Notes: generated by a model from the letters alone, not told the origin. A stretch of 64,000 nucleotides of DNA from Ignavibacteriota bacterium (GCA_963727825.1 CAVSHO010000009.1:864001-928000), one strand, 5' to 3'. Shown: positions 11,109 to 22,369, counted from the stretch's first letter. Made by a program: numbers and translations.

Positions 11109-11993
11109 TTATGCAGGCAATTCCGTATGAACATAGCGGTGAAAGTTTTTTGGAAACTTTTTCCGCAACTGCAGGACCATCGCTACGAGAATCTTGAGCG
11201 GTGATGATAAGCGAATACGCCTGGAAAACACGTCATATTGTGCACGCTCAATCCTGAGTAGAAGTAAATAATATATATTCCCCATTGTACGAGCGGCAGT
11301 AAAAAGCGGCTTGTCTTCTTCAGCGAGGCATGACTTAGCGCGGCGAAAATATTCATGAGCGCGGTTGCATTCGAACTTCATCAATTCGACAAATCGTTCA
11401 TTGTATGTGAAGTTCAACAAATCGTCTTCAGAATAATTGAACTTCCGCAAATCTTCTAGCGGCAAATAAATGCGTCCGCGTTTAGCGTCAGATTTAATAT
11501 CTCTTAATATGTTTGTTAATTGTAAGGCAATGCCAAGGTTGATAGCATATTGCTTTGTCTTTTCATTAGTATAACCGAATACTTCCGCGCAAATTAATCC
11601 CACAGTGGAAGCAGCACGGTAGCAGTATTGTTCTAATTCAGAAAATGTGGTGTAGCGTGTGTTTAACAAATCCATTTCCATACCCTTGATCAACTCATAA
11701 AAATATTCAATAGGAATATGAAATCGCTGGATGATGGCAGAAAGTTTATTTAGCAACGAATAATGCGAAATACCGTAGAGCGAGCGCCGCAACTCTTCTG
11801 TCCATTGTAAAAGCAGCGCATACTTTTCTTTCTCGTCCCCTGCTTCATCTACAATGTCGTCGGTGAATCGGCAAAAGGCGTAAATGGTTTCGATGGCGTC
11901 GCGTTTCGGGCGAGGCAAAATTAGGAACGAGTAATAGAAACTACTCTTTCGATTCTGCGAGAAATCCGGTATGACCGATATTGCTGTTTGCAC
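11109..11993 (-). CDS. hpnD: Presqualene diphosphate synthase (squalene/phytoene synthase family)
   Basis: SSFYYSF, DDIVD, LQLTNILRD and GRIYLP motifs. Follows an hpnC-type gene. Confidence 0.8.
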   Translation of the reverse strand: MQTAISVIPDFSQNRKSSFYYSFLILPRPKRDAIETIYAFCRFTDDIVDEAGDEKEKYALLLQWTEELRRSLYGISHYSLLNKLSAIIQRFHIPIEYFYELIKGMEMDLLNTRYTTFSELEQYCYRAASTVGLICAEVFGYTNEKTKQYAINLGIALQLTNILRDIKSDAKRGRIYLPLEDLRKFNYSEDDLLNFTYNERFVELMKFECNRAHEYFRRAKSCLAEEDKPLFTAARTMGNIYYLLLLRIERAQYDVFSRRIRLSSPLKILVAMVLQLRKKFPKNFHRYVHTELPA

Positions 11994-12005
11994 GGTTATA
12001 AGTTA

Positions 12006-12881
12006 CTATAAAAATGAACGAAAGAGAAGTCCCATCTTGTCCAACTTCGATAATGTCGGTCGTTTCGTCAATACGTCATAATTCTGCTCATGAATCTTTT
12101 GTAAGATCCTTGTGCCGCCATTCCAGGTAAGTTTCAATTCCATCGACAGATCTTTGCCAACCATAGTTAAAAGTGGTTTTCCTTCTGCAAAAAGTTCCGC
12201 AGTGCGCCGTACTTGAAACGCCATCAAATTGCAAAAGCAATTATTAACTTTTTGATTAATCAAATCCTGCTCAGAATAACCGAATTCCTCAAATTCTTCT
12301 AAAGGAAGATAAATGCGACCTTTCTGCAAATCCACCGAGACATCCTGCCAAAAGTTTGTTAATTGCAATGCTGTACAAATTGAATCCGAAAATTGCATCA
12401 TCGTTTCGCTGCGATAATTAAGCAGCAGTAAGACCAATCTTCCGATTGGATTGGCTGAGTTGCGGCAGTAAGCAAGCACATCTTCGTACGTTTCGTAACG
12501 TTTAACTGTTATATCCGTTCGGAATGCCGTAAGAAGATTCTGGAAAAGTTCAATTGGAATTTGGAATCGTTCGACTGTTTCAGCAAGTGCGGCAAACACG
12601 CGATGCGTAGGATTGCCGTTATAGCATTCATCAAGGTACTGTTCCCATTGATTCAGGTTATCCATTCGTTCGGCAAGTGTAAAACCCGGCTCATCAGCAT
12701 AATCATCTGCTATACGAGCAAAGGCATAAATTGTCCAGACATATTTTCGTATTTCTTTTGAAATAAAACGGGAAGCAATAGGAAAATTTTCGTAATGACT
12801 GTGAGCAATTGTTTCGCATACGCGGAATCCATCTTCCGACGACCAGTATTTGCCCTTTGTATAAAGTTTTGGATTGTTCAT
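12006..12881 (-). CDS. hpnC: Hydroxysqualene synthase HpnC
   Basis: HYENFPIAS, ADDYADE, SANPIGRLVL and LQLTNFWQD are HpnC signatures. Confidence 0.85.
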   Translation of the reverse strand: MNNPKLYTKGKYWSSEDGFRVCETIAHSHYENFPIASRFISKEIRKYVWTIYAFARIADDYADEPGFTLAERMDNLNQWEQYLDECYNGNPTHRVFAALAETVERFQIPIELFQNLLTAFRTDITVKRYETYEDVLAYCRNSANPIGRLVLLLLNYRSETMMQFSDSICTALQLTNFWQDVSVDLQKGRIYLPLEEFEEFGYSEQDLINQKVNNCFCNLMAFQVRRTAELFAEGKPLLTMVGKDLSMELKLTWNGGTRILQKIHEQNYDVLTKRPTLSKLDKMGLLFRSFL

Positions 12882-12956: not shown

Positions 12957-14901
12957 TCAAGCGATTGGGGCAATTCCTTCATCCACTGGAACTGTGTATA
13001 CTTCAATTGGCGTGTTAAGTCCTTTAACGAGAACAGGTTCATGCGGAAGAGTAGGAATTTCGTCTTTGATCAAATCATAGGTCCGTCGGGATATCATAAT
13101 ACCTTCTACCGGAGCATTTGATTCAAGACGGTTAGCAAGATTTACATTCGAACCGAGAACGGTGTAAGCAAGTTTCTTCGGCGTACCCATATTTCCCACT
13201 ACAACTTCACCCGTATTAACGCCAATACGAATTTTTAAAGGGAACAATCCTTCCTTAACCCATTTTTCTTTGAGCTCACGACATTTCTTTTGCATCTCGA
13301 TAGCAGCATTCACACACCGGACGGCATGATCCGGTTGTGGTTCGGGTGCGCCAAAGAAAACCATCAGTCCATCGCCAATGTACTTATCGACTGTTCCTTC
13401 ATACTTGAAGACAATCTGAACCATCGCATCAAAATACTCAGCAAGGAAACTCTGAATTTGATCAGGCGACATCGTTGAAGAATATGTTGTGAAACTCTTG
13501 ATATCTGTGAACATAATTGTCAGTTCTTTTTTTTGAACTTCGAAAATTGACTCAGGATGCGCAAGCTGGCGCTTGACAACAGAAGATGGCAGATACGATT
13601 CAAATGATCTTCGCGTCGCTTCCTTTTCACGTTCTTCATTAATAAAACGGAATACCAGTACACCAAATACAGCCACAACAATGATCATAGCCGGCCGCAC
13701 TATATTGAAAATGAGATTGCCATATATAAATGATAAGGAAGCAACAAAAATATATCCGATAAGTAGAAGCAAAGCACCAACCCAAAGTCCTTGTGAAGAC
13801 AGTTTCAGGGCAAAGAGAGCGACAAAAGCAAGGAGCAATATCTCAACAACCGTCATCTCCAATTCATTCAATTCTCGAAGAAAGTTTTCAGTCAGAATTG
13901 TATGTAAGACATTTGCATGAAGGCCGCTCAGTGGATAATTGTTGTCGGTTGGGACCGGGTGAATATCTGTCGCGCCGGTTGATGCATCTGCCACAACAAC
14001 TAATTTTCCCTGGAACTCCGGTTTCATAGTATATTCCATTGCATCGTGGTCGTCGGATGCACGGTAAATAGTTGCAAGATCATAGTTCACGATTCGTTCC
14101 CAAGGACCGACAAAATTAACAATTATATTGCAGCGGTTATCAATAGGAATGACGATGTTATGCGGCGGGCTGTTTGGACGGTGTGCGCCTTTGAGCGTCA
14201 GATACTTGCCGGGGTGCACGATGATGTTTTTGGGAGATACTTGCAAGAAATCACAAATGGCACTAAAGGCAAAACTTGGAACGAATCCGTCTTCATATCG
14301 TAGCAACAACGGTGCGCGACGGAAAACACCATCCTGATCAAATTGCAATGCGAGTGATCCAAGCCCACGCGCAGAAGATGCAAGCGCTGGAAAGGTAATG
14401 TTTGGGTTTGCTGCAACATACATCGTGCTGATGTCGCCGTCAACCTGGACATCCCATTTTGTTTGATATAAGTAGTCCCATGTAGAGGCAGGTCGAGGCG
14501 GACGCAGCTTTGGTGGTTTATCTTTTAACGCAAAGCCCATGCCAAAATAGACATTCCCTGCCGATCTGTTGCACGCCATAAAGATTGAATCGTCTTCTGT
14601 ATTTATCGGTGCTGCAAAAATAAAGTCCCAGATTTGTACAGCAACACCTAAGTTTCCTAGATTTTGTACTACTTGACCATACTGACGACGGGATAAATAA
14701 GGACTCGCGAGTGTTTGAAGAGGTACTGTCGGTTTGGTTCACAACAATTACCGTGCTGTCGTAAGGGATTCGGGATGGGAAATATTTATACCGGAGAACG
14801 TACAGCTTGTCAACTGACTCTGCGTTCCATGTATCGAACAGTTCTGGAAGTAAATAGAATAGCAGATGTACGAAGAGAAAAGAGGACACGATGATGATCA
14901 T
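12957..14901 (-). CDS. CHASE2-domain membrane adenylate cyclase (class III), split by one indel near 14721
   Basis: Joining ORFs 14518-14985 and 12957-14579 gives an N-terminal TM, CHASE2 (WDFIF, DQDGVFRR, GLHANVLHTIL), 3 TM helices and a cyclase domain (FTDIKSFT, DKYIGDG, GSNVNLANRLE). Confidence 0.85.
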
Positions 14902-14923
14902 CGTGTCCCTCAATGTTCGTTTT

Positions 14924-15619
14924 TTACTGGTGGTCAATAGTAATGGTTTTGCTATAGAAGTTATTGGCGCTGATCTGCGTGGCAATGGTTGCTACATCGG
15001 GACGGCGTGCACCCTCCACCTTCTCTGTTCCGCGTATGTTGCCTCCTATGGTTAGCGGTTTTTCGGCAATTGTTGCATAGGTTGTGTAACGTTTCCTCAC
15101 ACTGCGAATTAGAGATACGATATCAGTGGCTATTGGCTGCCTCTTAGAAGTATCGGCAGAAAAATAATTGCCAAGTTTTACTTCCAGATCAAGCAAACGC
15201 TCGCTGGAGGCAATGAGAAAGAAAACTTCCTTACCAGTATTTTTATCAAATTCCCTCCAACTGCGGCCTTTAGGAATGTAGTAATTTTTATCGACTGTGT
15301 AGTCGGCTTGGAACTGACGTATCTCATAAGGGAAGAGCAAATTTATTTCACCCCTTGAATCCTGGTGAATAACATAAACAAAACAGTCCTTTGTCAGTTT
15401 CACCAGCATTTTTATTTCCTCTCCGCTCTTCAAAGTTGTATCATGCATAATGGAAACCATTGACTTGCTTTTACCCGCAAGTGCGCCAAATGCCCAATTA
15501 AATCCAATGTTGGCTTCATTTTGTTGAACCAGTAAAACGGCCGGCGCCGGTTGTTTACCGGATCGAAATCCGACTGCGAAACAACCCAATAAAACTACAA
15601 AAAGAATGAAGTAACGCAT
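14924..15619 (-). CDS. Exported DUF4384-like protein
   Basis: Signal peptide (possible LLGC lipobox). L+SGE.I....K..KDCFVYVI.QDS.G.I.LLFP...GKEVFFLIAS pattern. Confidence 0.7.
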   Translation of the reverse strand: MRYFILFVVLLGCFAVGFRSGKQPAPAVLLVQQNEANIGFNWAFGALAGKSKSMVSIMHDTTLKSGEEIKMLVKLTKDCFVYVIHQDSRGEINLLFPYEIRQFQADYTVDKNYYIPKGRSWREFDKNTGKEVFFLIASSERLLDLEVKLGNYFSADTSKRQPIATDIVSLIRSVRKRYTTYATIAEKPLTIGGNIRGTEKVEGARRPDVATIATQISANNFYSKTITIDHQ

Positions 15620-15643
15620 ACTTGATATCCTTTCTTCATTTAT

Positions 15644-18067
15644 TCAATGAGGGACAGTTGCAATAGTCATTTCTTTATCGTATTCCGTCTGACTCCGCGT
15701 TGGATTTTGAGCACCGTGTGTCTTGCGTTTGACCTGCTCTTCCACGTACCGCATTAATTCATTGATTGTCACAGTGTAGTCGTTATCATAATCCGCTTTG
15801 CCTTCCAAACCTTCCAGTAAATAATAAGTGAATACGCCATGACCCATGTCTGGGAATTCCTGTGACACTTCACCTGCAGCGCTCGCAGTGAACACTACAA
15901 TACCTTCTTTCGTTTTCGATAGGTCTGCGAGATATTGATTTACCAAATTGGGTTCCGAGCTTCCCAAGCCGCGCGTGGCAAAGTTGACGCTGATGCCGCC
16001 GCTGTGGCAAGCATCGGTAAACACAACAACACGCTTAGCGCTGATGTACCGCGCTAACACCGTTTGAATATCCCACATAGGAAAGGCTGTCATTCCCAAT
16101 GCCATCGGATCGCTGTCATAGGTTAACAAGTACATATTCTGAGGACGCGCTGGCTCTGGTGCACCATGACCGGCGAAATATATAATTACAAGATCTATAT
16201 CGATTGCCTGGTTAAGAAAATTGATCAAACTCTCTCTTATATTCGCAAGAGTGGCATCTTTGTTTAACAACACACGTATGTGGTCAGAATCGTAGCCTCC
16301 GCCTTCCGGCCTGCGCAAAAAGTTTGCGAGCGCTTCCGCATCCTTATCGGCATATTTTAAACTTGGAATTCCAGGATTCTTGTATTCCGAAACACCAACC
16401 ACTACTGCCCATGATTGCGGACCGGAACCAGCAACACGTTCTTTCTTGACGCCAGAGTTAAGAGATGGCGTACTTCCGAGAATTGATACTTTTCTATTAA
16501 TGCCGATCGTTTTGGAAAATTTTTCACCACTTTTACTTGTAATAGAAAGTTGAATCTGATTATAGCCCGCAACCAGCGGTACTTCATCTGCAATTACGTC
16601 GCCTGCTACTTTGAATTCCGGCACTTGACCATTTACAATATCAACCATATTTACGGAAATCGAATATGAAGCAACATCAAACCATGTTCTGAATTTTACA
16701 GGAGTAGACATCGATTCCGTTTCTGAATTGACGAGCGGATATTCCACCTCCACTGCCTGATCATTTGAAAGGCGCTGAACAAATCCACTTTGGCTGACGG
16801 AGTGTTTTGCATTGTCTTCAACTTTAATTTCAAACGGAATCAGACCAACCGAATCCAATTTCAATACTGTGCTAAAGCGCTTGATGGCTTTCATTCCTGC
16901 CGGAACCTTGACAATATCTTTTGCGGTGAGCTCCGACAGTATAAGTGGCTTTCCATTGAATGTTGCTTCTTTCAACCCGGAATCATCAAATACAACGCCA
17001 CGGATTTCATATTTTCCGCCAAATACTTTGGCTATAGTTGTACTATCGGCGGTATTTTCCAGAATAATTCCAGGATTTGTCGTATCAGGCGGGGCTAAGA
17101 CAATTTTCCAACTTTTCAGTTTGCCCTTACTTGTGCTAGTAAGAAGTGTTTCATCATTCAAGAAAGCTGCATAAGTGGTACGGCCATCGCGCTCAATCAT
17201 TGTCTTGACGGTAGATAACGTTATAAGATCATAGAACCTAAGGGAACTGTCAGCAGCTGCAGAAACAAGCCAACGCGATTTCGGATCAAATGACACAGAG
17301 GCAATCATGCCTCTTTGATTGTACCTTAATTTTAAGTCACCTGTTTGTGCATCCCATAGGTATACACTTCCATCAACCGCGCCGGCGGCAAGAAATTTTC
17401 CATCAGCACTATAAGTAATTGTTGAAATTTTATCTTTGCTGTCGATGAAAGTTTTTTGAAGCTCTAATTTTGCAATAGCATAAATTTGAATCTTGCCCGT
17501 AGACAAGCCAACTGCAAAATACTTTGCGCTTGGATGAACAGCCATCGTTGTTACATTTTCTTGAAAATCTGGTAACGATCCTAGCTCATTACCGTTAACA
17601 ATTTCTGTAATGATTACCTTTTTGTCGAGACCGGAAGAAAATATCCAATTCTCCCCCTGGAACGCTATTGATGTAATTTCAAGTGAATGAAGGGATAGTT
17701 TTTTTAGATCGTTTGGAGCATTTATGTTGAATAAGTACGCATTTCCATCTACAGCCCCGAGTGCCAGTGTTTGTCCTGAGGCGGAAAACGATAATGAATT
17801 CACGTATACCGGTATGGAGACAAATATCGGTTTTTCTCTCAATGCTGGGATATCATAGAGTTTAACTTTGCCCTCCGAAGTAAGAATTCCGAGCAAGTTT
17901 GCCTTCAATGAAACCGCACAGAAATCAATAGAATTTTTTACGGCATCTACGGATTGAAGCTGCTCTATATACAATTCCTGTTGCGAGTAGGAAATGGATG
18001 TGGCTATAATTACTGCTAACAACACGCAGAGAACAAGTCTTCGTTCCATGATAAACTCCATCTTCAT
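15644..18067 (-). CDS. Exported WD40-repeat + Ig-like + caspase-family (peptidase C14) protein
   Basis: Signal peptide (start possibly at 18049), WD40 repeats and beta-sandwich linkers. C14 motifs WAVVVGVSEY, FAGHG, DACHSG, GHGVFT and QNP. Confidence 0.9.
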   Translation of the reverse strand: MKMEFIMERRLVLCVLLAVIIATSISYSQQELYIEQLQSVDAVKNSIDFCAVSLKANLLGILTSEGKVKLYDIPALREKPIFVSIPVYVNSLSFSASGQTLALGAVDGNAYLFNINAPNDLKKLSLHSLEITSIAFQGENWIFSSGLDKKVIITEIVNGNELGSLPDFQENVTTMAVHPSAKYFAVGLSTGKIQIYAIAKLELQKTFIDSKDKISTITYSADGKFLAAGAVDGSVYLWDAQTGDLKLRYNQRGMIASVSFDPKSRWLVSAAADSSLRFYDLITLSTVKTMIERDGRTTYAAFLNDETLLTSTSKGKLKSWKIVLAPPDTTNPGIILENTADSTTIAKVFGGKYEIRGVVFDDSGLKEATFNGKPLILSELTAKDIVKVPAGMKAIKRFSTVLKLDSVGLIPFEIKVEDNAKHSVSQSGFVQRLSNDQAVEVEYPLVNSETESMSTPVKFRTWFDVASYSISVNMVDIVNGQVPEFKVAGDVIADEVPLVAGYNQIQLSITSKSGEKFSKTIGINRKVSILGSTPSLNSGVKKERVAGSGPQSWAVVVGVSEYKNPGIPSLKYADKDAEALANFLRRPEGGGYDSDHIRVLLNKDATLANIRESLINFLNQAIDIDLVIIYFAGHGAPEPARPQNMYLLTYDSDPMALGMTAFPMWDIQTVLARYISAKRVVVFTDACHSGGISVNFATRGLGSSEPNLVNQYLADLSKTKEGIVVFTASAAGEVSQEFPDMGHGVFTYYLLEGLEGKADYDNDYTVTINELMRYVEEQVKRKTHGAQNPTRSQTEYDKEMTIATVPH

Positions 18068-18071
18068 TTAC

Positions 18072-18118
18072 GACACGCAAAATAATGGTTAGCACACAAA
18101 CATCATGTGTTGCGTGTC
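18072..18118. promoter_or_regulatory. 9-bp inverted repeat immediately upstream of the caspase gene
   Basis: GACACGCAA (18072-18080) / TTGCGTGTC (18110-18118). Confidence 0.35.
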
Positions 18119-18329
18119 AAAAGCTAAGAGATACAACTATTAACCGACTAGAAAATCAAAATGTAATTTCAATAAATGAATTCTTGCATGCAACGGAAAT
18201 ATTATAGGATTTTTCTGATAGATTGCCTTATTTTTCTAAACGAATGGTCGATATTTTTCGAGTGAATGTCAAGCAACGTTCGTTTCCCCATGAATCCTGT
18301 CTTTTTGAAATTATTTACAATTGTCGTGA

Positions 18330-18638
18330 TCATAACTTCATAAAAAGATTGAGCAAACGTGCGCGAATGCTTTTATCAAGAAGAGTTACCTCTGGATTGG
18401 ATTCAAGTCCATAGATGATATCGTCGATTGATGAAATTGGAGTTTTTACTTTTAAATTATGACGAAGAAAATCCCGCAAGCGGTTGAGAAATAGAAGCAG
18501 TTAATCTGCATGTGCTAGGATTTCAGAATCATCTGCGTTCGATATTATTGTTCTAAATGTTGAAGCTTGATGAACAAATTTGCTTGCCAGCACTTCTCTA
18601 TCTCTGTTTTTTCCACAAAGATTTAAATGTGCTTTCAT
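18330..18638 (-). pseudogene. Possible degraded small gene (103-codon frame with one internal TAA at 18501-18503)
   Basis: Reads ...SEILAHAD*LLLFLNRLRDFLRHNLKVKTPISSIDDIIYGLESNPEVTLLDKSIRARLLNLFMKL*. Protein-like, but I do not recognise a family. Confidence 0.25.
18593..18613. repeat. 21-bp direct repeat of the rarA stop-codon region (other copy 19224-19244)
   Basis: CTTCTCTATCTCTGTTTTTTC is identical at both sites, which bracket the GNAT gene. Confidence 0.8.
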
Positions 18639-18639
18639 T

Positions 18640-21006: not shown

Positions 21007-22129
21007 TTATTTGTACCAATCATTTTTAGGCTGGTATGTCGTCTTGAGTTTTGTCTTTGCTTCGTGACGCTCAATAGCAAGTTGAATTAATTTATCCAAT
21101 AACGCAGGATATGATAATCCCGACGCCTGCCAGAGTTTTGGGTACATGCTAATGGAAGTAAAGCCAGGAATAGTGTTGATCTCATTCAAAAAGATCTTAT
21201 TTGTTTTTTTGTTAACCAGAAAATCAACGCGTGCCATACCAGCACAATCCAAAACACGAAATGCTGTAAGCGCATAATGCTTAATCTTTTTAACAACAGT
21301 GCTCGGTAACTTTGCCGGAATAACAGAATTAGATTTTTCATCCACATACTTTGCATCATAATCATAGAATTCATTTGAAGAAATAATTTCGCCTGGCATA
21401 GAAGCGACAGGTTGGTCATTGCCAAGAATACCGCATTCAATTTCGCGTGAATTCGTGATTCCTTGTTCCACTAAAATCTTTCTGTCAAATTGTGCGGCAG
21501 TATCAATAAATACAATGTAGTTCTTTACGATTATGCGCTTTGTTAATACCGATACTCGAGCCGGAGTTCGACGGTTTAACAAAAAGCGGATACTTCAACT
21601 TTTGTTCAATTTCTGCAATTATTTTTTTATGTTGCAATTTGTACTCTTCAAAAGTAAACCAAATGCTTGGCGCAGTCGGAATTTTTGCCTGAATTAGCAA
21701 TTGTTTCTGAGTCACCTTATCCATTCCAACAGCAGAGCCAAGTACACCTGGACCAACATACGGAAGATCTGCAAGTTCTAACAATCCCTGCAGTGTTCCA
21801 TCCTCGCCGTATCTGCCGTGAACTACCGGAAAGATGACATCTATTGCTTTTCCAACGTTGCCGCTATCGTTTATAGCTACAAGAGATTGTTTGCGCGGAT
21901 CTGGAACAAGTAATTGTTCCTGTTCAAGTTCAATCGGTTGTTTTTCTTTCAGTAAGCGGAGCGTTTCGTTGGAACTGAGCCATTTACCTGTTGGCGCGAT
22001 ACCGATAGGAACGACTTCATACTTTTCTTTATCAAGAGCATTGATTACGGAAGCAGCAGAGACGAGCGAAACTTCATGCTCTACTGATCGCCCGCCGAAA
22101 ATTACACCGATACGAATTCGTTTAGTCAT
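21007..22129 (-). CDS. ddl: D-alanine--D-alanine ligase, split by one indel near 21510
   Basis: [22 protein letters not shown] and GSSIG in one frame. YDYDAKY and [10 protein letters not shown] in the next. Confidence 0.92.
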
Positions 22130-22369
22130 TAGTATTTTGTAACCTGCAATTCGGAATGGATTGTATTCATGTTCTTCATGGAATATGATATGGAAAAGAG
22201 TGGAGAGGTGCAACGAACTAGATATCTATACTCATATAGGCTTTTATATTGCGTTTCGATAGAAAAGTAAGTAGGTTTTCTGCAATTAAATTGTCGTTCA
22301 CAAATCAAAAATAGAAGTATAATCAATCTGTTGAATCAATAACTGTTTCTACTATCGGAGAACGATTTA

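Follow-up and report, generated by a model that had tools for sequence, protein, structure and literature searches.

An exported WD40-caspase protein, a DUF4384-family partner and a CHASE2 receptor cyclase encoded in tandem in an Ignavibacteriota genome: a candidate extracytoplasmic sensor

CHASE2 is described as an extracellular or small-molecule receptor domain, with no ligand named (PMC5192318; PMC8195603, citing the 2003 description), and the first of these papers adds that the factors it recognises are not known. Several described systems resemble the one studied here in part. Namely, in the 'BiofilmReg' operon of Burkholderia contaminans a CHASE2 membrane receptor adjoins a signal-peptide protein that is thought to act extracytoplasmically (PMC5192318); in Sinorhizobium meliloti, which has the CHASE2 class III cyclases CyaD1, CyaD2 and CyaK as well as NsrA, cyclic AMP (cAMP) rises on a protein signal via an envelope accessory (PMC13001267); in a Trichodesmium metacaspase (PMC3501461) and in EACC2-caspase-CHASE2 proteins (PMC8195603) a caspase fold is linked with CHASE2; and in the type III-E CRISPR system 'Craspase' a caspase-fold protease, Csx29, cuts its partner Csx30 at a flexible linker, releasing a signal (bioRxiv 10.1101/2022.08.17.504292). 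Here we analyse three neighbouring genes, for an exported WD40-caspase protein, a small exported DUF4384-family protein (the partner) and a CHASE2 adenylate cyclase (the receptor), in a stretch of 64,000 nucleotides (G000:C9:864001-928000, hereafter the window) from the genome of an uncultured peat bacterium of the Ignavibacteriota (G000; 3.12 Mb in 14 contigs, completeness 96.8%, contamination 6.55%). As a unit, the three were not found described in the literature searched, supplementary files lying outside of that search.

Across the family of loci that we compared, the conserved unit is the pair of partner and CHASE2 receptor, and the WD40-caspase is a lineage-specific addition to it that is regular in the Ignavibacteria. 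We give a probability of about 0.55 to the reading that co-receptor and receptor form the core of the system, with the protease as a lineage-specific input. In particular, the core would be a two-gene extracytoplasmic sensor consisting of a small exported DUF4384 beta-sandwich protein and a CHASE2 receptor cyclase, in which the partner would act as a periplasmic co-receptor or ligand-presenting partner of the receptor and would so govern the synthesis of cAMP by the receptor's cytoplasmic domain, a class III cyclase of Lys/Thr type. In the Ignavibacteria, the exported WD40-caspase, preceding the pair in what would be one operon, would feed the signal in by cutting the partner, for which the invariant Arg196 in the partner's exposed loop is the candidate site. 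That partner and receptor work as a unit we consider highly probable, and we infer that they bind; that the protease cuts the partner is a tentative proposal, with the odds somewhat against it.

Gene layout and the partner/receptor overlap

The genes and their flanking elements, in coordinates of the window, are the following.

15644-18067, minus strand: gene 1, exported WD40 / two beta-sandwich / Peptidase_C14 (orthocaspase-like) protein of 807 residues (open reading frame, Pfam, AlphaFold2 model m4bd8d249017c, 54 aligned orthologues)
14924-15619, minus strand: gene 2, exported DUF4384-family partner of 231 residues (PF14326, AlphaFold2 model m43e9fabd9733)
14518-14985 and 12957-14579, minus strand: open reading frames of gene 3 as read, the cyclase lying in two frames (open reading frame map)
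14723-14937, minus strand: 5' piece of gene 3, with probable TTG start, KKR tail, first transmembrane segment (TM1) and early CHASE2, up to the frameshift
12957-14721, minus strand: 3' piece of gene 3, with the remaining CHASE2 ectodomain, three transmembrane helices and the class III adenylate cyclase (Pfam, transmembrane prediction, homology to CyaB 3r5g)
14883-14909, minus strand: 12-bp perfect inverted repeat with a 3-nucleotide loop, spanning the ATG at 14901, about 28 nucleotides downstream of the probable TTG (terminator-like scan)
18068-18639, minus strand: non-coding stretch of 572 nucleotides 5' of gene 1, presumed promoter region of the operon (open reading frame map, sequence)

The open reading frame map and Pfam bear out what an initial annotation had read from this DNA, namely three co-directional genes with the domains as it named them; they lie head to tail on the minus strand in the order caspase protein, partner, cyclase. 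The spacing of about 20-25 bp given there holds for the caspase and DUF4384 genes (24 nucleotides), but between the DUF4384 gene and the cyclase 22 nucleotides are obtained only if the latter starts at the ATG at 14901, and a TTG at 14937-14935, in the same frame, gives an overlap of 14 nucleotides instead. Judging by comparison of sequences, the receptor gene most likely starts at this TTG, within the last codons of the partner. Namely, distant family members have no ATG between the stop codon of the partner and TM1 of the receptor. What they do have is a TTG in the receptor frame, 11 nucleotides before the partner stop, made up from the terminal Ile ATT and the G of the following Asp or Glu codon, the motif at the partner's C-terminus being I-[DE]-H-x-stop. 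The overlapping TTG is present at 60 of 63 unique metagenome junctions and at 52 of 59 unique Ignavibacteria junctions, and it is the sole start candidate at 26 and 14 of them, respectively; among the seven Ignavibacteria junctions without it, five have an ATG 9 nucleotides after the stop. The codon bias supports this start as well, in that the junction Ile is encoded by ATT in 64 of 66 metagenome and 48 of 55 Ignavibacteria sequences, as compared with 42% (375/892) and 37% (308/830) of Ile codons elsewhere in the same genes. What is more, starting at the TTG adds a conserved Lys/Arg-rich tail ahead of TM1, as expected for a cytoplasmic N-terminus. An overlap conserved in this way points to coupled synthesis, by which the partner would be made together with the receptor. 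The sequence of the inverted repeat at 14883-14909 is largely kept in five relatives from the genus. A scan of the region for sigma-70-like promoters was uninformative, with 13 sites against 14.0 expected, which is not above shuffles.

Distribution of the pair and of the protease gene

Among the 41 genomes searched, the source genome included, the partner was found in 23, and in 17 of the 24 that belong to the same family. We examined the locus in 20 of the 22 other genomes with a partner match (G040 and G036 were left out). In the same-family genomes, caspase, partner and cyclase stand in the same order in 17 out of 17, one caspase being truncated where its contig ends; in two genomes of another family a caspase comes with two partner paralogues and no cyclase in the stretch examined, and in one genome the order is caspase, partner, cyclase, caspase. 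In five same-family genomes without the partner, a caspase domain was found in none, and their only CHASE2 ectodomains are paralogous ones at 24-28% identity. A set of species-representative genomes, overlapping with these relatives, yielded 63 loci (62 of Ignavibacteria type and one labelled Desulfobacteraceae). Where 2.2 kb or more is available after the partner, CHASE2 and cyclase follow it in 50 of 51 loci; where 2.6 kb or more precedes it, 56 of 57 have a caspase upstream; and the full trio is present in 46 of the 48 with room on both sides, the exceptions being L088 and L110. The trio is kept even in the most distant loci (L091-L112, approximately 38-41% caspase identity), where the squalene/phytoene synthase flank of the window is gone. 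At L110 (L110:3653-5101) and L111, from two genomes of the Ignavibacteria order, two partner paralogues stand in tandem after the caspase, with 34-39% identity to the partner in the window; there is no CHASE2 gene in the stretch examined, and CHASE2 genes occur elsewhere in these genomes.

Beyond this group we looked at a sample of 251 Desulfobacterota genomes, of which 23 have a partner match and three a full-length one (E 4e-83 to 4e-73). A CHASE2 cyclase is the next gene in all three; of these pairs, one follows a caspase that lacks WD40, another is without a caspase over 8 kb upstream, and the last lies at a contig end, and each of the three genomes carries at least one C14 gene somewhere. 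The remaining matches cover the DUF4384 core only. Here, a caspase matched by hidden Markov model (HMM) stands in the flank at 10 of 18 loci examined, one of the ten having a CHASE2 cyclase as well and nine being without CHASE2.

Metagenomes were scanned with 12 distant family members (36-40% identical to the partner in the window), and the counts refer to the best 80 of 127 confirmed places. CHASE2 is the next gene in 63 of the 65 loci with at least 300 nucleotides downstream. A caspase is found within 3 kb upstream in 9 of the 31 loci with at least 2.6 kb there, and anywhere in the locus in 5 of the 11 with room on both sides; the local HMMs behind these counts were built from Ignavibacteria orthologues and may miss remote caspases, and several of the loci are near-duplicates. 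The trio, in other words, is the rule in the Ignavibacteria (46 of 48 loci, joint absence in five out of five), but it is not what the wider family conserves, which keeps CHASE2 next to the partner (63/65) and has the caspase in a minority of loci (9/31). At one locus (L171:2946-4519), a trypsin-like peptidase (PF13365) and an LPP20-like lipoprotein stand ahead of the pair, with no caspase, and this peptidase may fill the caspase position. At five others (L167, L199, L233, L234, L242), the CHASE2 gene after the partner has no cyclase domain by the local model although there is room downstream; such genes may have other output domains or may encode receptors without output.

The three proteins

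The partner matches DUF4384 (PF14326) over residues 63-140 (E 2.6e-15, 56.7 bits against a cut-off of 27), and its hydropathy profile has a single N-terminal hydrophobic segment; the N-terminus is hydrophobic in 47 of 48 orthologues. The AlphaFold2 model (mean predicted local distance difference test, pLDDT, 84.8; predicted template modelling score, pTM, 0.76) is one beta-sandwich, made of strands within 38-138, 182-188 and 214-230, into which a helical hairpin (143-177) is inserted. Segments 16-32, following the signal sequence, and 192-203 are of low confidence, and Arg196 (codon 15032-15034) sits in a loop with pLDDT under 50. No Pfam family exceeds its cut-off in the C-terminal third, and Foldseek found no match of the model in the PDB at E <= 0.001. 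In a comparison by VIA-align with approximately 48,000 chains the best Z was 7.5 (Ig-like domains, filamin, macroglobulin-type), and since this lies within the background of the tool, only a generic beta-sandwich can be assigned. A profile search of 1.84 billion cluster representatives returned 3304 relatives with E limited to 0.001; tightening the limit to 1e-10 left 898, and to 1e-30 left 243. Most of the 150 top-scoring ones stand alone, with about 220-240 residues, and over the 136 of them with 205-280 residues Arg196 is conserved at 99%, Gly193 at 96%, Pro188 at 94% and Glu186 at 90%. We considered a lipoprotein, given L-L-G-C in the window, and rejected it, the Cys not being conserved among nine relatives.

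On the receptor side, the cyclase open reading frame of 540 residues matches CHASE2 (PF05226, E 1.6e-19, 70.9 bits, in the 3' piece) and Guanylate_cyc (PF00211, E 1.5e-32, 113.1 bits); in the intact cyclase of a relative, CHASE2 scores 103.2 bits across profile positions 8-255. Hydropathy of this intact copy gives transmembrane segments at 1-19, 347-365, 374-392 and 403-421, i.e. TM1, an ectodomain of about 320 residues (to about residue 346), three transmembrane helices and then the cyclase. The nearest solved structure to the cyclase domain is that of the adenylate cyclase CyaB (3r5g, E 1.7e-43), with which the two metal Asp, Lys, Thr, Asn and Arg all align; among 48 orthologues, each of these six catalytic and specificity residues is either invariant or conserved at 90% or more, and the motif DKYIGDG is present. 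We take the enzyme to be of class IIIb, the 'Lys/Thr' type. A complex prediction for the CHASE2 ectodomain (residues 23-346 of the relative's intact copy) with the partner (22-231), made with a 48-row alignment for each chain and without controls, scored 0.28 and 0.26, under the mark of 0.32, and counts neither for nor against a complex.

The frame of the receptor gene is broken in the window, at a site for which contigs from other sequencing runs can be compared:

14722-14723, minus strand: CC dinucleotide with one surplus C, which shifts the cyclase frame (DNA alignment with five relatives from the genus)
run X1, DNA: contig of 119 nucleotides, 6 other letters
run X3, DNA: contig of 524 nucleotides, 12 other letters
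run X15, RNA library: contig of 262 nucleotides, 17 other letters

Over the region compared (14300-15300), one base is left out at 14722 in all three covering contigs, which come from close strains and not from the same strain; run X2, whose pieces are identical to the window, has no coverage at this position. The contigs from the RNA library X15 resemble the cyclase and partner genes, over part of their length, at about 92-93%, which is no proof of transcription in the source strain. A second gene of the window, for D-Ala-D-Ala ligase (ddl, 21007-22213, minus strand), is also split, into overlapping frames for the N-terminal domain with the start of the C-terminal domain and for the rest, and this points to assembly indels. 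The cyclase is in two frames at three more of the 63 loci as well (L055, L098 and L099, from hit maps). The frameshift is most likely an assembly error rather than a strain-specific mutation.

The protein encoded by gene 1 is built from the parts listed here.

17981-18067, minus strand: predicted signal peptide, residues 1-29, with a hydrophobic core at 11-29, S-Y-S and then Q-Q (hydropathy)
17099-17971, minus strand: seven-bladed WD40 beta-propeller, residues 33-323, fast-evolving (Pfam, model)
16493-17071, minus strand: two all-beta (Ig-like) domains, residues 333-432 and 439-525 (AlphaFold2 model)
15656-16414, minus strand: Peptidase_C14 caspase-fold domain, residues 552-804 (PF00656, alignment to 6w8s)
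16166-16168 and 16007-16009, minus strand: codons of His634 and Cys687 in gene 1 (numbering by sequence)

Many WD40 and beta-propeller families of Pfam match its first part (PF00400, E 1.1e-22, 79.9 bits against a cut-off of 27), and Peptidase_C14 (PF00656) matches residues 552-798 (E 1.9e-22, 80.5 bits against 21.4), with FAGHG at 631 and DACHSG at 685; in the middle region no Pfam family is above its cut-off. The AlphaFold model, built on 54 orthologues (mean pLDDT 83.3, pTM 0.49), has an N-terminal helix (3-28), a propeller of 27 strands in seven four-stranded blades (33-323), two all-beta domains, a disordered linker (529-549) and an alpha/beta caspase fold (552-804). Apart from a single N-terminal hydrophobic segment, hydropathy gives no further transmembrane segment; the N-terminus is hydrophobic, by a crude threshold, in 45 of the 54 orthologues, and most of the remaining nine we judge to be over-extended open reading frame starts. 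Of the solved sequences, that of Arabidopsis metacaspase-4 is closest (6w8s; E 9.3e-06 by single sequence and 1e-06 by profile; 6w8r is its Cys-to-Ala form), and His634 and Cys687 align with its dyad motifs. In the alignment, the Asp of the metacaspase N-D motif falls on Asp576, and Asp685 stands two residues before the Cys; all four residues are invariant in the 54 orthologues, and the two Asp are equated with Asp95 and Asp211 of TbMC2 by motif position and not by overlay of structures. The protease would in this way keep both Asp of the metacaspase S1 pocket as a candidate acidic pocket. Since in metacaspases these two Asp accommodate basic substrate residues and give basic P1 specificity (PMC6426788), we infer a preference for Arg or Lys at P1. 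Column identity is about 0.25-0.4 in the propeller and middle domains as against 0.6-0.8 in the caspase domain.

With these results, most of what the initial annotation had named in the three proteins is upheld: the C14 domain with an intact His/Cys dyad by both PF00656 and the metacaspase-4 alignment, the Ig-like spacers by the two all-beta domains of the model, the DUF4384-like nature of the second protein by PF14326, the signal peptides of the first two by the one hydrophobic segment in each, and the CHASE2 receptor with a class III cyclase and an ATP-specifying Lys by Pfam and the CyaB alignment. The topology predicted by hydropathy likewise agrees with its placing of all three ectodomains in a shared extracytoplasmic compartment.

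By Pfam, the flanking genes are housekeeping ones. Upstream lie mgsA and a gene for a GNAT acetyltransferase; downstream are genes for citrate synthase, a MerR regulator and two squalene/phytoene synthases. The two synthase genes are tandem paralogues at 11109-12881 (minus strand), directly 3' of the cyclase, and their synteny with the trio extends to many Ignavibacteria. The whole genome holds one match each to PF14326 and PF00656 and two to CHASE2, and encodes five cyclic nucleotide monophosphate-binding proteins and five class III cyclases.

Competing readings and comparison with described systems

Several points weigh against the reading that we prefer, with the partner and receptor as core and the protease as an added input. 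First of all, within the genus (7 genomes, 21 pairs) partner identity tracks that of the WD40 propeller (r 0.89) and of the caspase domain (0.63), but against the CHASE2 ectodomain r is -0.13, and this pattern argues against a tight co-evolution of partner and receptor at the scale of the genus. In the same genus (L035, L051-L060) the cyclase domain (residues 440-640) is 85-100% identical, and the CHASE2 ectodomain (residues 1-400) is of two types with 50-70% identity between them. Because the ectodomain types do not follow the pattern seen in the protease and partner genes, recombination where partner and receptor genes join is suggested within the genus, along with fast change of every extracytoplasmic part, the sample being small and the genomes related; across 41 Ignavibacteria genomes all parts correlate, at 0.70-0.89. 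Furthermore, no longer relatives in which the partner is fused to receptor or protease were found at E <= 1e-5, a negative that carries little weight. A caspase is missing upstream of most sampled pairs in the wider family (22 of 31), and the pairs without one have unrelated upstream genes (MatE, HerA-like ATPase, EamA, ETF, radical SAM). The signal peptides are predictions from hydropathy, and the loci do not count as independent, since they stem from genomes that are related and from metagenome contigs that overlap. Finally, Arg196 may serve receptor binding rather than cleavage, because it is equally conserved across a family most of whose sampled loci have no adjacent caspase.

If the pair is what we propose, it offers a testable lead on CHASE2, a sensor domain without an established ligand or activation mechanism. 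In particular, a periplasmic partner whose translation is coupled to that of a large CHASE2 subfamily (243 clusters at E <= 1e-30) would be a handle for binding and reconstitution, and the exported caspase of the Ignavibacteria would provide a natural test of whether extracytoplasmic proteolysis gates a second-messenger receptor, and of the part that caspase homologues of bacteria play beyond the cytoplasm. A more specific version, possible though doubtful, is that of a protease-activated receptor, in which the exported WD40-caspase would read a variable external cue with its fast-evolving propeller and cut the partner at the Arg196 loop, and the cut partner would switch CHASE2 and thereby cAMP synthesis. 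The invariant Arg196 in its low-confidence loop and the conserved acidic S1 pocket lend indirect support to such an order of events, and the alternative role of Arg196 in receptor binding bears on it from the other side. Were it true, the first defined activating ligand of CHASE2 would be a processed protein, extracytoplasmic proteolysis would be converted to cAMP, and bacterial caspase homologues would have a signalling role outside of cell death.

The initial annotation had arranged the same parts into a pathway: WD40 would respond to a cue, the DUF4384 protein would be processed by the protease, and CHASE2 would be switched by what results. Taken as an obligate three-part chain, with the fragment as the CHASE2 ligand, this seems to us unlikely for the family. 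The near-constant trio and the five joint absences in the Ignavibacteria, the invariant Arg in a flexible loop and the acidic pocket all speak for it. However, in 22 of the 31 wider-family loci the pair has no adjacent caspase, and for this reason the protease would not be obligate to the mechanism unless encoded elsewhere, as it could be in the three Desulfobacterota genomes with the pair, each of which has a C14 gene somewhere.

Quite unlikely, in our estimate, is a protease that serves as an exported effector or for feeding, to which the DUF4384 protein would be adaptor, inhibitor or aid in substrate recognition, while the CHASE2 cyclase would sense the products or regulate the operon. Such an arrangement would fit the nine of ten caspase-bearing Desulfobacterota loci in which DUF4384-only proteins lie near a caspase without CHASE2, the frequent fusion of DUF4384 to protease domains (bioRxiv 10.1101/2022.08.17.504292), and the co-variation of the partner with the protease and not the receptor in the genus; but through the gene overlap the link of the full-length family, which has the C-terminal extension, to CHASE2 is much closer than its link to any protease. 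That the genes are neighbours by descent only, or a dead pseudogene cluster, is largely refuted and very improbable: many relatives share the synteny of the flanks (mgsA and the two squalene/phytoene synthase genes) as well and the cyclase is frameshifted in the window, but the trio persists in distant Ignavibacteria with changed flanks, the pair is found again, next to unrelated genes, in another phylum and in metagenomes, and the frameshift is absent from the three close-strain contigs, ddl being split likewise.

How, then, does the system compare with those already described? In the caspase-CHASE2 fusions (PMC3501461, PMC8195603) the caspase is predicted to be cytoplasmic with CHASE2 as its sensor, and fusions with a cytoplasmic caspase are also found in PMC7475262. 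In contrast, caspase and CHASE2 are encoded at this locus by separate genes and not on one polypeptide; the caspase is predicted to be exported to the same side as CHASE2, and the output would be cAMP. With orthocaspases and metacaspases (C14B; metacaspase-4, 6w8s, being the nearest), the protease has in common the His/Cys dyad and two Asp at the basic-P1 positions; unlike them, it has an N-terminal signal peptide, a WD40 propeller and Ig-like domains and is predicted to be periplasmic. That said, exported caspase homologues have a precedent, since metacaspases with a probable signal peptide are already listed in PMC3501461; the caspase-like systems that the initial annotation cites as cytoplasmic are those linked to gasdermins and CRISPR. 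The likeness to Craspase would be one of analogy, since that system is cytoplasmic and RNA-guided, with a CHAT-type protease and a sigma-factor output, unlike the exported C14 protease presumed here; one group of Csx30 proteins carries a DUF4384 domain (bioRxiv 10.1101/2022.08.17.504292), a point that, like the ten Desulfobacterota loci with a caspase flanking a DUF4384-only protein, we count in favour of a link between protease and partner.

In the system of S. meliloti, the accessory is an outer-membrane beta-barrel and the signal a plant ribosomal protein, and neither a protease nor a DUF4384 protein is reported (PMC13001267). Among the genes flanking our locus a general Pfam scan gave no beta-barrel, no search with the NsrA sequence having been made. 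In BiofilmReg, the partner is a FecR/LysM protein and the output a histidine kinase (PMC5192318), as opposed to a DUF4384 beta-sandwich, an adenylate cyclase, overlapping genes and a caspase in the operon here; Pfam gives no FecR match in the neighbour of CHASE2 in the window, this neighbour being the DUF4384 protein. The genome has a second CHASE2 cyclase, of 734 residues and with a weak TPR match, in a cluster 1.1 kb past the end of the window (G000:C9:929117-935825; L164:618-7326). In this co-directional cluster a FecR-domain protein of 562 residues is encoded three genes upstream, along with three proteins without a Pfam family, which is the FecR arrangement known for CHASE2 kinases of Burkholderia (PMC5192318) and speaks for a pairing of partner and receptor. 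In other words, one and the same genome has two CHASE2 cyclases, one adjoined by a DUF4384 partner and the other with a FecR-domain protein in its cluster.

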